Source: Escherichia phage vB_Eco_F27
Sequence record: OP870146.1
DNA: 64,000 bases
Reading direction: 5' to 3' (one strand)
The notes beneath the pieces were generated by a model. The model was given only the letters and a program-made list of their open reading frames with translations. It was not told the origin of the DNA and made no database searches. This document shows, in pieces, positions 13,134 to 37,120 of this stretch. A program made the position numbers and the translations under genes. The first letter of the stretch is position 1, and the number at the start of each line of letters is the position of its first letter.

Positions 13134-13165
13134 TTTGTTTACTCCTCTGTAGTTGATAAGTCTAT

Positions 13166-34297: not shown

Positions 34298-34351
34298 ATT
34301 TTTCCACTTACTAAAGAAATCATTATACTCTAATCCGTCCTTGGATGTACA

Positions 34352-34966
34352 CTACTTAATGAAATTAATTTCTACCGGATGAACAACAGGTTGAGCAGTG
34401 ATATATTGAGTAATTGCTTTCATGACTAGAGCTTCAGAGCCAGGATTTTTCTCAACGAATTCACGTGCTTGGTTATGAGCTTCAAGTTCACTTAGTAAAC
34501 CACTTCGTTGACATCCACGGTCTTGAGTACCCTGTTCAGATAAAAAGGCGACGATGTATTTTTCATCGTCATACGGTTTAGACGGTTGAGCAAATGTTCC
34601 TTTACTTCCAAAAGGAGAGTTATGACGCCACATCACGCCGTTAGGAGTTTCAACCTTCGTATATTCGTGCGGGCCATTTTTCTTAGTTTCTTGATGTGGA
34701 ACTTCATGGACCTTAGGGTTAGGACATTCAATAAAATGCTCATCTAAATCAGTCGAGAATATTAAAGTAAAACAATTACTAAATTTACCAACACCTGCCT
34801 GATAAATTTTACCTTCAGACGTTCTAATTTCACAAACCGAGCCAGCATCAGTAACTTCTAAAACTTCAAAAGGCTCGATAAGATCATATGAGAACATGTT
34901 TTTAAGGCGTGGAGTAATATCCCCATTTTTAAAATTCATTTTATAAAAAGTATTAACTTTAAACAT
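34352..34966 (-). CDS. Hypothetical 204-aa protein
   Basis: Start reassigned to MFKVNTF..., preceded by GAGGAAA RBS and a GGGAGCUUCGGCUCCC leader hairpin. Confidence 0.55.
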   Translation of the reverse strand: MFKVNTFYKMNFKNGDITPRLKNMFSYDLIEPFEVLEVTDAGSVCEIRTSEGKIYQAGVGKFSNCFTLIFSTDLDEHFIECPNPKVHEVPHQETKKNGPHEYTKVETPNGVMWRHNSPFGSKGTFAQPSKPYDDEKYIVAFLSEQGTQDRGCQRSGLLSELEAHNQAREFVEKNPGSEALVMKAITQYITAQPVVHPVEINFIK

Positions 34967-35001
34967 AATTTCCTCAGTGGGAGCCGAAGCTCCCAATTAA
35001 T

Positions 35002-35367
35002 TTAGATATCAAATTCGTTAAGAACTACATCAAAGATTGCTTCGAGATGTTCAGGTTTAGCTCGGTTACTCAGGATATGACGAATCCAAGTTTTAACCAG
35101 AAGTTTACGATTAACACCATTCCAGCAAGGATGAGTACCTAAATCACGCTGACGGAAATCATCATCTAATGCAATTTTAAAATTTGAACCTTCCATCGTG
35201 ATTGAAACCGTGATACCATTTTCAAATCGCATATAAACGTAATTAGGAGTCATGCACTGTTCGATTTCACAAACTGTACCGTTTTCGTGTTTCCATAAGC
35301 AAATAACTTCAGAAGAACCAGCAATACCGTTAGAAACATATTTACGTTCGAAGTTGGTGTAGTTCAT
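35002..35367 (-). CDS. Hypothetical 121-aa protein
   Basis: ORF with its own early promoter embedded in a 9-bp inverted repeat at 35398-35438. Confidence 0.5.
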   Translation of the reverse strand: MNYTNFERKYVSNGIAGSSEVICLWKHENGTVCEIEQCMTPNYVYMRFENGITVSITMEGSNFKIALDDDFRQRDLGTHPCWNGVNRKLLVKTWIRHILSNRAKPEHLEAIFDVVLNEFDI

Positions 35368-35397
35368 TTTATTCTCCAGATGTTTAAGTTGTTTGTT

Positions 35398-35438
35398 GGT
35401 ACAGGTCTATAATAACATAACCTGTACCAAAGTAAACT
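35398..35438 (-). promoter_or_regulatory. Early promoter embedded in a stem-loop (PeSL-like), upstream of ORF 35002-35367
   Basis: GTTTAC-N17-TATTAT; perfect 9-bp inverted repeat GGTACAGGT...ACCTGTACC brackets the spacer and -10. Confidence 0.6.
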
Positions 35439-35441
35439 GGT

Positions 35442-35810
35442 TTATGCAACTTTAATCCAATTGTCTAAATTTAAAACACCTTTGGCTTTCATTTTTTCTA
35501 TCAGGTTATCTGCTGTAATGCGTCCATTTTGATACCATGTAACATCTTCAGAGTAACCAGTTTCTTCGTCAACATATGTTTCTGAACGAATTTTACCGGT
35601 AATAATAGTTTTTAATTCGTATGTGTCACCTGTGAAAAAGTTTGCTAACACAATTTTCCAAGAGAAATCATCAGAAGGACCTTCAGGGGTCATACAACCT
35701 ACGAACTCAAATTGCTCTTTGTATAACATCCACTGGAATTCTTTAATTTCGATAGCTTTATAACCATCGTGGTCTTTACATTTGATGTATGAGTTCAGAT
35801 TGATTTTCAT
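35442..35810 (-). CDS. Hypothetical 122-aa protein
   Basis: ORF with its own early promoter at 35853-35882. Confidence 0.5.
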   Translation of the reverse strand: MKINLNSYIKCKDHDGYKAIEIKEFQWMLYKEQFEFVGCMTPEGPSDDFSWKIVLANFFTGDTYELKTIITGKIRSETYVDEETGYSEDVTWYQNGRITADNLIEKMKAKGVLNLDNWIKVA

Positions 35811-35852
35811 TTTGTTCTCCAGGTTGTTTTATTGATTAGATGGTACAAGTCT

Positions 35853-35882
35853 ATAGTAACACATCCTACAGGAGAGTAAACA
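35853..35882 (-). promoter_or_regulatory. Early promoter upstream of ORF 35442-35810
   Basis: GTTTAC-N17-TACTAT on the minus strand. Confidence 0.55.
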
Positions 35883-35905
35883 TCTTTTTAAACTTTTTCT
35901 GCCCT

Positions 35906-35935
35906 AAACGCACAAAAGGGAGACCGAAGTCTCCC
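35906..35935 (-). terminator. Intrinsic terminator after the 59-aa basic ORF
   Basis: Minus strand GGGAGACTTCGGTCTCCC followed by TTTTGTGCGTTT. Confidence 0.75.
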
Positions 35936-35940
35936 TAAAA

Positions 35941-36120
35941 TTATGCAACAACCTTTCCAAAACGAGAAGCATCATCTCGAAGAACTGCACGTGCTCTGCG
36001 CATGATCTTCTCAACTGTTTGATTAATACGAGAGTTCGACCCACGCTTGTATCCAGCGCGTTTAGAGGTACCATCAACTTTCTTTTCAACTGCTTTCTTT
36101 GCTTTAGCTTGTTTTGCCAT
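35941..36120 (-). CDS. Small lysine/arginine-rich basic protein, 59 aa (not in ORF track)
   Basis: Hand-translated: MAKQAKAKKAVEKKVDGTSKRAGYKRGSNSRINQTVEKIMRRARAVLRDDASRFGKVVA; followed by a GGGAGACUUCGGUCUCCC-U-run terminator. Confidence 0.45.
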   Translation of the reverse strand: MAKQAKAKKAVEKKVDGTSKRAGYKRGSNSRINQTVEKIMRRARAVLRDDASRFGKVVA

Positions 36121-36414
36121 TATAAATTCTCTTTAAATGAAAATGCAGGACTTATTGACATTGCCTGCGCAAGCCCTCAATGGGAACATAGGTTTTGGAT
36201 ATTTAACGACAGGATAACCATAAACCCGTCATCATACCAACCACGACTTAGACAGATAACCTTTTTCTGACGCGTGATAGTACAAAATACATTCAAGAGG
36301 TACACCGTAAAACTGTCGGGGTCTTAAAACTATAATGATTCGCAAATCATTAATCAGACAGTTCGACGGCTCCTCGATTTTCTAGCCGCACTAAGGTAGC
36401 GAATCACCTAAAAC

Positions 36415-36663
36415 TTATTTAAGGGTAATAACAAAATGACGTACTGCTTTACGAGCGGCTGAAGCCAGAGGCTTAGCATATTTCAGTTCATCTTTTGCTT
36501 CCAGTTCAGAGGCCAAAGCTGCCTGTACCGGGTTCAGATGTTTGAAATATCGCAGGATTTCCAGTGCTTCGGCTTCAACATCAATCGACGCGCCGTAGTT
36601 TTCGTGACCGTTATTCCATGCGTTGCGTTGCAGTTCAAGAGCGTGTTGTAATTGTTTAATCAT
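36415..36663 (-). CDS. rIII: rIII lysis inhibition accessory protein
   Basis: 82 aa, same as T4 rIII; adjacent to gene 31; late promoter upstream. Confidence 0.8.
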   Translation of the reverse strand: MIKQLQHALELQRNAWNNGHENYGASIDVEAEALEILRYFKHLNPVQAALASELEAKDELKYAKPLASAARKAVRHFVITLK

Positions 36664-36779
36664 TTTAAATTCTCAATTCGAGATAATATTTAGTAGCCAC
36701 GTTCGTCTGAATTTCACCTTCTTTCGACAAGTCTCTCAGTTGTAGGCTACCGCTTAGAAGAGTGTTCTCTTCATATAGT

Positions 36780-36787
36780 TATTTATA
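36780..36787 (-). promoter_or_regulatory. Late promoter (TATAAATA on minus strand) upstream of rIII
   Basis: Reverse complement of TATTTATA immediately after the gene 31 stop. Confidence 0.5.
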
Positions 36788-37120
36788 TCACTTATAAAGA
36801 CACGGAATAGCTTTATAGTGGCATGTTACGAATTTCTGTTTAATTTCTTTAGGTTGTTTAAGTCCTAAAGCCACAAATGGATGTGGAACATTTCGAATTT
36901 GACCAACTGGTAGTGGAGTCAAATCACCGACTTCAGCAAAACCTTCAGGAACATCAGGACCTACAGAATGAACTACACATAGTTCAGGAACTTCACCTTG
37001 AACACGTTTACCAATCACAAGTCCTGATTCGGTAACTTCTTCATCACCTGCTTGAGCGGGTTCAGAAACCAGAATGACATATTCACCAACAGCACGAATT
37101 GGGAGTTGTACTTCAGACAT
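36788..37120 (-). CDS. 31: Co-chaperonin gp31 (GroES analogue)
   Basis: 110 aa; near-identical to T4 gp31 as recalled ([29 protein letters not shown]...[15 protein letters not shown]). Confidence 0.9.

Follow-up and report, generated by a model that had tools for sequence, protein, structure and literature searches.

The closest described relative of the locus discussed here is the region of genes 30.7 to 30.9, the regulation of which was reportedly analysed for T4-type phages by Truncaite, Zajanckauskaite, Arlauskas, and Nivinskas (Virology 2006, 344:378). Our subject is its counterpart in Escherichia phage vB_Eco_F27 (sequence record OP870146.1), positions 34,352 to 36,120 of a 64,000-nucleotide (nt) stretch of DNA that we call the window. 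We are mainly concerned with a small gene for a Lys/Arg-rich protein of 59 amino acids (aa), gene 30.9, and with the spacer that precedes it. Hairpins with CUUCGG tetraloops in the intercistronic regions of T4 are said to have been described by Tuerk et al. in 1988. Some leaders are bound by the product of the gene that they precede; the pseudoknot operator of T4 gene 32 and the leaders of ribosomal protein genes are such autoregulatory leaders. Finally, promoter-early stem-loop (PeSL) cassettes join a stem-loop terminator to an early promoter, and variable open reading frames (ORFs) are exchanged between these conserved regulatory joints (Arbiol et al. 2010, PMC2839356; Comeau et al. 2014, PMC4122927). 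The study of Truncaite et al. 2006 is cited by PMC9409239 and PMC1702504.

Our results show that the locus follows the T4 plan closely. The 2.7 kb around the segment are 97–98% identical over their full length to dozens of Mosigvirus genomes (JM17, WFK, and mar005P1 among them). Mosigvirus comprises T4/RB69-like coliphages, and in these relatives as in T4 the minus strand, on which all genes discussed here lie, reads 31, rIII, 30.9, 30.8, 30.7, the slot of 30.6, 30.5, 30.4, and on to the DNA ligase gene 30. The 98% match to Mosigvirus, the annotation in relatives and in T4, the agreement between Pfam and PHROG, and BLASTP against T4 together identify the stretch as the gene 30.6-to-30.9 segment of a T4-like Mosigvirus, lying between rIII and the genes towards ligase gene 30. 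The original prediction had placed early accessory genes at a 30.x position, with ORFs of 204, 121, and 122 aa, and in this it was right.

The locus shares with T4 the order rIII-30.9-30.8-30.7, with gp30.9 96% and gp30.7 92.6% identical between the two. Both loci also have a terminator following 30.9, an early promoter each for 30.8 and 30.7, a stem-loop that covers the −10 hexamer of the 30.7 promoter, and GGAG Shine-Dalgarno (SD) sequences that fit the target of the nuclease RegB. The differences are a gp30.8 that is merely 37% identical to that of T4, an unrelated 204-aa ORF in the 30.6 slot, a promoter-like site of its own for 30.5, and an extra 52 nt in the spacer before 30.9 (module B). 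The two hairpins of the segment conform to the CUUCGG type of T4, both having C(UUCG)G loops and G+C stems that contain GGAG. There is nothing unusual here: one hairpin has a U-tract and terminates, and the other is without a U-tract.

By its layout, the terminator together with the 30.8 promoter (35853–35936) is a PeSL-type terminator/early-promoter composite. The replacement of 30.6 by the 204-aa ORF likewise resembles the exchange of variable ORFs between conserved joints in PeSL cassettes. Unlike in those cassettes, the upstream joint of the 204-aa cassette consists of a hairpin and an SD sequence without a promoter. With autoregulatory leaders the locus has in common an H-type pseudoknot with a conserved loop 3, located upstream of the gene of a small, very basic protein. 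It differs from them in that there is no sequence similarity and no Rfam match, in that the pseudoknot (module C) lies at least 67 nt from the start codon, and in that the position of this module within the spacer varies between phages.

The genes and signals of the segment are ordinary and already described for T4-type phages, and there is no novelty in them. In its original form the finding is of little consequence, since it amounts to a rediscovery of T4 genes 30.7–30.9 and of the published layout of early promoters, RegB sites, and terminator. The original prediction holds in part; it is wrong on one fact (a promoter for the 204-aa ORF, the detail that our analysis corrects) and overstated on one point (an unannotated protein). 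The sole new element may be the RNA modules in the spacer upstream of 30.9. The positions of all features are collected in Table 1.

Table 1. Features of the 30.6-to-30.9 segment and of the adjoining spacer, in window coordinates.
Feature	Position	Strand	Basis or remark
Early-promoter-like site for 30.5, GTGTAC-N-TATAAT	34322–34352	minus	overlaps end of 204-aa ORF
204-aa acidic ORFan in slot of T4 30.6	34352–34966	minus	phrog_17531
SD sequence GAGGAAA of 204-aa ORF	34969–34975	minus	read from sequence
UUCG hairpin GGGAGCUUCGGCUCCC, between 30.7 stop and SD of 204-aa ORF	34979–34994	minus	folding energy −13.1 kcal/mol, z −3.0
Gene 30.7, 121 aa	35002–35367	minus	PF06919 (Phage_T4_Gp30_7), T4 BLASTP
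SD sequence of 30.7, GGAGAAUAAAA	35367–35377	minus	11/11 positions of RegB/S1 target consensus
Inverted repeat GGUACAGGU...ACCUGUACC over −10 of 30.7 promoter	35398–35428	minus	folding energy −17.9 kcal/mol, z −5.2
T4-type early promoter of 30.7, GTTTAC-17-TATTAT	35409–35437	minus	pattern scan and generic sigma-70 scan
Gene 30.8, 122 aa	35442–35810	minus	PF06019 (Phage_30_8), T4 BLASTP
SD sequence of 30.8, GGAGAACAAAA	35810–35820	minus	10/11 positions of RegB consensus
T4-type early promoter of 30.8, GTTTAC-17-TACTAT, A-rich upstream element	35853–35881	minus	pattern scan
Spurious 61-aa TTG frame	35904–36089	minus	overlaps 30.9 and terminator; no family match (Pfam, PHROG)
Intrinsic terminator ending the rIII-30.9 unit, AGGGAGACUUCGGUCUCCCU hairpin and U-tract	35912–35936	minus	folding energy −14.7 kcal/mol, z −4.5
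Gene 30.9, 59-aa basic protein	35941–36120	minus	phrog_1427, T4 BLASTP, LR027383 annotation
Weak SD hairpin before 30.9	36127–36143	minus	folding energy −1.9 kcal/mol
Spacer module D	36145–36186	minus	
Spacer module C, pseudoknot	36187–36236	minus	covariation
Spacer module B, 52 nt, extra relative to T4	36237–36288	minus	
Promoter-like site in spacer, GTGTAC-17-TACTAT	36277–36305	minus	one mismatch; junction of modules A and B
Spacer module A	36289–36378	minus	long hairpin, covariation
Spacer module M1	36379–36408	minus	first in transcription order

Gene identities and the reading frame of 30.9

The products of 30.7 and 30.8 are conserved early proteins. PF06919 matches the 121-aa ORF with 174 bits against a cut-off of 27, covering residues 1 to 120 of 121, and PF06019 matches the 122-aa ORF with 149.2 bits against a gathering cut-off of 25. 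In T4, genes 30.4 to 30.8 are early as RNA and as protein (PMC9697503 Table S2).

Judged by homology, the 59-aa ORF is the conserved phage protein gp30.9. It is matched by phrog_1427 (PHROG 1427, E = 2.4e-31), it is similar over its full length to T4 gp30.9 (NP_049823; BLASTP, E = 1e-34), and LR027383 explicitly labels it gp30.9. As in the T4 family, it lies between rIII and 30.8 and is followed by a terminator. Of 39 related loci with sufficient upstream sequence, 38 have rIII upstream of 30.9, and only L052 does not. The original prediction had presented the 59-aa protein as unannotated and absent from the ORF track. In fact, it is among the mechanically listed ORFs and is annotated in both LR027383 and T4. 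Nor is it a novelty: homology searches lead to gp30.9, to PHROG 1427, and to 1006 phage records positive in tblastn, which come from phages of E. coli, Shigella, Klebsiella, Enterobacter, Yersinia, Salmonella, and Serratia and from other T4-like phages.

Several RAST-annotated phage records (e.g., OR352946, PV390659, and UniRef A0AB39C...) carry the label “1,4-alpha-glucan (glycogen) branching enzyme, GH-13-type” for gp30.9 or the spacer. The label is evidently wrong and is spreading from one record to the next.

That the 59-aa ORF is a genuine gene is borne out by comparison with relatives. Its frame is intact in about 50 of them, which is every relative examined, and the other frames carry stops. 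In the 38-codon core of the gene, closer relatives show 9–12 synonymous against 0–2 non-synonymous codon changes, and the rIII protein of these relatives is only 67–77% identical. Third codon positions hold most of the differences in the core, and insertions and deletions (indels) cluster immediately 5' of the ATG, with none inside the ORF. This pattern of substitutions indicates that gp30.9 is a genuine protein of 6.6 kDa under strong purifying selection.

The stops in relatives and the pattern of codon changes are also the reason why we take the 59-aa call to be real and the overlapping 61-aa call to be spurious. The 61-aa frame (the +1 frame) is open in this window and in T4, which would speak for it as the expressed product. 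Nevertheless, it starts with TTG, has no family match in Pfam or PHROG, passes through the terminator hairpin, and contains one to four internal stops in relatives L005–L013. We give next to no credence to its expression, and the earlier suspicion that it is spurious was justified.

Could the conservation over 35941–36120 be that of an RNA or DNA element, with the 59-aa ORF remaining untranslated? The adjoining spacer is conserved though non-coding, and the SD sequence of 30.9 (AAGAGA) is weak and maybe partly sequestered. In T4, the 30.9 RNA is classed as early and the gp30.9 protein was not detected in the proteome (PMC9697503 Table S2). An untranslated element would nevertheless be hard to reconcile with the third-position bias and the excess of synonymous changes, with a frame that stays intact where other frames acquire stops, and with indels that sit just upstream of the ATG rather than within the ORF. 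Furthermore, distant homologues of 55–92 aa keep an SKRAGYKR motif in the protein despite diverged DNA. We therefore consider this explanation very improbable. The title of a paper from 2003 points to work on the expression of 30.9 in vivo.

For T4, a longer product of 97 aa has historically been listed as “11.1 kDa protein in Gp30-rIII intergenic region”. We rejected this version of the gene; the longer frame needs a 1-nt indel just upstream of the ATG, and here a TAA interrupts it five codons before the 30.9 ATG.

Promoters, terminator, and expression

We scanned both strands of the 64-kb window for the early-promoter pattern GTTTAC-N16-18-TAnnAT. There are 11 matches, all on the minus strand, where about 1.05 would be expected, and none of 100 shuffles reached 11. 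The sites have a common layout, with an A-rich upstream element, TACTAT followed by “agac”, and an SD sequence and ATG about 40 nt downstream. According to the original prediction, an individual early promoter precedes every one of the three ORFs; this holds for 30.8 and 30.7 and fails for the 204-aa ORF. The 35-nt space between 30.7 and the latter contains the hairpin and the SD sequence only. Without a promoter, the 204-aa ORF must be expressed by read-through from the promoters of 30.7 and 30.8 (P30.7 and P30.8).

The 204-aa ORF could still have an early promoter hidden in the 3' part of 30.7, where its nearest relaxed match is found: GTTTAT-17-TATCAC at 35210–35238, inside 30.7 and about 240 nt upstream. 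This match has two mismatches, and matches of this quality are no more frequent than background (171 minus-strand and 178 plus-strand matches), while the 3' part of 30.7 has no site with the exact pattern. In addition, the hairpin and the ACUGAGGAAA junction that follow 30.7 are the same as those that couple 30.7 to 30.6 in T4. A hidden promoter thus seems improbable.

The other nine exact T4-type early promoters of the window, also on the minus strand, are at 13164, 16011, 28500, 39435, 41561, 42967, 44150, 51645, and 54941. Their downstream layout is near-identical (TACTAT-agac...caacaaca-GAGGAAA-ATG), which makes them candidate PeSL-like cassettes elsewhere in the window.

The strong terminator that had been predicted directly after the 59-aa ORF is indeed there. 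It consists of a stem of 8 bp with a UUCG loop, followed by a UUUUGU tail, and begins 4 nt past the stop codon. In all 12 relatives listed, 30.9 is likewise followed by a G+C hairpin and a U-run, and the stems show compensatory changes. The pattern scanner missed this terminator because its closing A-U pair uses the first U; its energy comes from direct folding of the hairpin. The hairpin said to lead into the 204-aa ORF is present as well. In this case, GGGAGCUUCGGCUCCC is followed by ACUGAGGAAAUU without a U-run, and the hairpin is not a canonical terminator. T4 has the hairpin GGGGCUUCAGCCCC at the same place, before 30.6, and the record of one relative annotates the hairpin at 34979–34994 as a putative terminator. 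The inverted repeat over the −10 hexamer of P30.7 is conserved in T4 and would form a stem-loop in read-through RNA from P30.8.

The target consensus of RegB in conjunction with S1, as derived for T4, is GGAGAAUAAAA, that is, GGAG followed by an A-rich 7-mer, and GGAG buried in UUCG hairpins is reported to be RegB-resistant (PMC1702504). The T4 30.7 mRNA is a known, standard RegB substrate (PMC9409239). Since the SD sequences of 30.8 and 30.7 consist of GGAG and an A-rich tract, translation of both genes is predicted to cease within minutes as RegB cleaves their messages. The GGAG inside the hairpin stems should resist RegB, and the hairpins should protect 3' ends.

Together with published work on T4, the sequence suggests the following expression scheme. 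Gene 30.9 would be the last gene of an rIII-30.9 unit and would be read from promoters upstream of rIII, a gene that in T4 is driven by early, middle, and late promoters. Transcription of this unit would cross the 294-nt structured spacer and end at the UUCG terminator. Directly past the terminator, the host sigma-70 RNA polymerase would start at the strong promoters P30.8 and P30.7. These transcripts would run via 30.8, 30.7, and the non-terminating UUCG hairpin into the 204-aa ORF, which has only a ribosome-binding site of its own. A further early-type promoter would serve 30.5.

We estimate the probability that the combined account, including gene identities, promoters, terminator, RegB sites, and protein readings, is correct at roughly 85%. 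Several points weigh against it. Promoter use, RegB cleavage, and termination are read from the sequence and from T4. The promoter-like site at 36277–36305 could give 30.9 its own start in this phage. This site is poorly conserved (L016 has a spacing of 11 nt, and T4 lacks the −10 hexamer), so that we list it as a low-confidence candidate for an own early start of 30.9 that could operate in this lineage. For gp30.9 there is no homologue of known function by sequence or fold, and nucleic-acid binding is deduced from composition. Finally, the protein was missed in the T4 proteome, which is expected for a small Lys/Arg-rich protein after trypsin and is not positive evidence.

The gp30.9 protein and the spacer RNAs

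Our results also show that gp30.9 is far more conserved than gp30.8, gp30.5, and gp30.4. Its core is 97.5% identical to that of T2, T4, and T6 (tblastn). The 38-codon core is identical to those of T4-type relatives and of the Klebsiella/Enterobacter-type loci L028 and L029, while neighbouring genes drop to 37–69% identity. The family is small and phage-restricted: a hidden Markov model search of 1.8e9 representative proteins returned only 18 small phage-like relatives. Distant members (55–92 aa) keep SKRAGYKR(K)SNKR and the basic helix that follows it, and the invariant residues form the motif SKRAxYKR-SN-R. Few small early proteins of T-even phages are as conserved as gp30.9, which makes it a good candidate for a host-takeover factor with a conserved target.

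What this target might be is suggested by the composition of the protein. Its isoelectric point is 11.35, with 18 Lys and Arg against 5 Asp and Glu residues. An AlphaFold2 (AF2) model has a mean predicted local distance difference test (pLDDT) score of 67.6 and is essentially one helix, confident over residues 30–54. The N-terminal tail is Lys/Ala-rich and, with a pLDDT below 50 at residues 11–16, probably disordered. As for the binding of nucleic acid raised in the original prediction, we found no recognisable DNA- or RNA-binding domain or fold with Pfam, NCBIfam, PADLOC, a profile search of the PDB, or Foldseek; the first three gave no match at all, and Foldseek against the PDB gave nothing at E ≤ 0.001. 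The PDB profile search gave only a weak match, to a helix of SlmA, which we rejected as chance (E = 0.19). Our best guess from composition, at about even odds, is that gp30.9 has a conserved polyanionic binding partner in the infected cell, be it RNA, the ribosome, or DNA. Of these, DNA seems the least likely because gp30.9 is co-transcribed with the S1-binding protein RIII.

Distant 30.9-like genes (L052, L054, and L056) have ordinary promoters of their own and short leaders, and one of them directly follows a DNA ligase gene. This is the gene in L056 (2501–2689 of the metagenomic contig ERZ27276680 k141_17414), which encodes 62 aa with a GYKRSTNKR motif directly 3' of the ligase gene on a contig that looks phage-like and is unrelated in its other parts. 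Ligase and 30.9-like genes may thus have been linked since before the T-even group arose.

Upstream of 30.9 lies the rIII-30.9 spacer (36121–36414, minus strand), which comprises 294 nt, is ORF-free, and is conserved relative to T4. Such a spacer occurs in all related loci that carry rIII and 30.9. Its length ranges from 120 to 416 nt, and its modules are present, absent, or reordered. In module A, 25 pairs are predicted, 5 of which show double compensatory changes among 12 closely related variants. The G-U pairs of this module are fixed on the gene strand, which argues for an RNA of gene-strand sense.

Each of the 38 distinct rIII-30.9 spacers examined contains a single copy of module C. The module conforms to an H-type pseudoknot, with the helices P1 (GACGGG/CCUGUC) and P2 (UAUGG/CUAUG) and a conserved loop 3, CGUUAAAUAUCCAAAAC. 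Matched halves of P1 pair with a mean of −4.20 kcal/mol, compared to −2.19 kcal/mol for halves combined across phages; for P2 the means are −3.92 and −1.60 kcal/mol. For either helix, none of 5000 permutations was as good. The covariation score of the module is 0.419 (MAFFT alignment). Shuffles scored 0.187, none of 500 reaching the observed value, and slid partners gave no more than 0.178. In this window P2 is weak (−2.2 kcal/mol). The permutation and shuffle tests ignore phylogeny, and the significance is therefore overstated. Still, there are about seven distinct helix variants for P1 and about six for P2, and this number is persuasive support for module C. Among 185,579 bacterial and archaeal genomes, none contains the core sequence of module C.

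In many relatives, module B is replaced by M3, a 135-nt multi-helix RNA (CGGCAAGUGCAUGC...GCUAACGGUGUGCAACAGAUAAGAG) between rIII and 30.9 (L019–L021, L023, L024, L026, L028–L033, L038, L043, L045, L047, L049–L051, and L053). M3 is not found in the window and is single-copy per genome. Of its 40 pairs, 18 show double changes, compared to 7.2 in shuffles, and M3 is 96.8% paired, compared to 31–42% when the partners are slid. Rfam gave no meaningful match at E ≤ 10 for 36100–36800, and at E ≤ 1 only chance-level matches on 30–40 kb of the window and on six related loci; M3 has no Rfam match either. The 64-kb window contains no second copy of the spacer.

The modules are candidates for a translational operator of 30.9, for stability or processing elements, or for stable non-coding RNAs. 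The most novel interpretation, which is tentative and falls somewhat short of even odds, is that they form an undescribed class of cis-regulatory or stable non-coding RNAs of T-even phages that would control, or cooperate with, gp30.9 and/or the S1-binding RIII. If functional, they would extend the short list of known T4 RNA regulators.

A more specific idea is that gp30.9 is an RNA-binding protein that acts on the spacer before its own gene, for example by repressing itself via the module C pseudoknot. Regulation of this kind, through the leader of the protein's own gene, is exercised by T4 gp32, RegA, and ribosomal proteins. The retention of module C in every distinct spacer, the covariation that backs both helices, the very basic nature of gp30.9, and a possible SD-sequestering hairpin upstream of the 30.9 start in several lineages would all be consistent with self-repression. 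In this window, however, the SD hairpin is not significant, as 53 of 200 shuffles fold as well, and the same goes for an SD-sequestering hairpin before rIII. Moreover, the leaders of the distant 30.9-like genes (L052, L054, and L056) are short and ordinary and carry none of the modules, so that the protein does not need the RNA. The modules could equally serve rIII or act in trans. We regard self-repression as unlikely.

It is also possible, and not quite as unlikely, that the modules are mere recombination scars, that is, PeSL-like joints shuffled at the DNA level that have no function as RNA. Their being present, absent, or reordered between phages would fit this explanation. So would the recurrence of part of one module variant in the spacer between 31 and rIII, as expected for mobile regulatory cassettes (PMC2839356, PMC4122927). 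Scars would not readily account for compensatory double substitutions that keep helices intact, seen in module A as well as in the covariation of module C, nor for gene-strand G-U pairs that are fixed and a module C that is universally retained.

The spacer between 31 and rIII (36664–36787, minus strand) starts with the T4 late-promoter motif TATAAATA (36780–36787). It contains a 60-nt hairpin at about 36692–36751, which is homologous to a module-D variant found before 30.9 in the Klebsiella-type loci L009 and L011. The initiation region GAGAAUUUAnAAUG is common to rIII and 30.9.

The 204-aa ORF in the 30.6 slot

The 204-aa ORF starts at an ATG at 34966, 7 nt after the SD sequence GAGGAAA, and this start is used in relatives. 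The mechanical ORF is 214 aa long and begins at a TTG at 34996, inside the hairpin. By database comparison, the 204-aa ORF is a Mosigvirus-only ORFan. The sole PHROG that matches is phrog_17531 (E = 6e-145), Pfam, NCBIfam, and PADLOC give no match, and among 5.8e9 proteins there are just two clusters, both of Mosigvirus-type sequences. An AF2 model from a three-sequence alignment is unusable (pLDDT 34).

With T4 gp30.6 the ORF has only the genomic slot in common, since BLASTP finds no match at E ≤ 10. T4 and relatives L005–L007 hold an unrelated 95-aa 30.6 in this slot. Nearby in L009–L011 are other ORFs of 155–187 aa that are weakly similar to the 204-aa ORF (BLASTP E values of 1e-4 and 0.016).

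The upstream edge of the 204-aa cassette (34967–35001) is the hairpin with the ACUGAGGAAA joint, and the same junction precedes 30.6 in T4. From the arrangement of these joints, the 204-aa ORF looks like a lineage-specific cassette that was swapped for 30.6 between conserved regulatory joints, in the manner of PeSL cassettes. At the downstream edge stands the early-promoter-like site for 30.5, which has no counterpart in T4; a spacer with such a site is missing there because 30.6 and 30.5 overlap.

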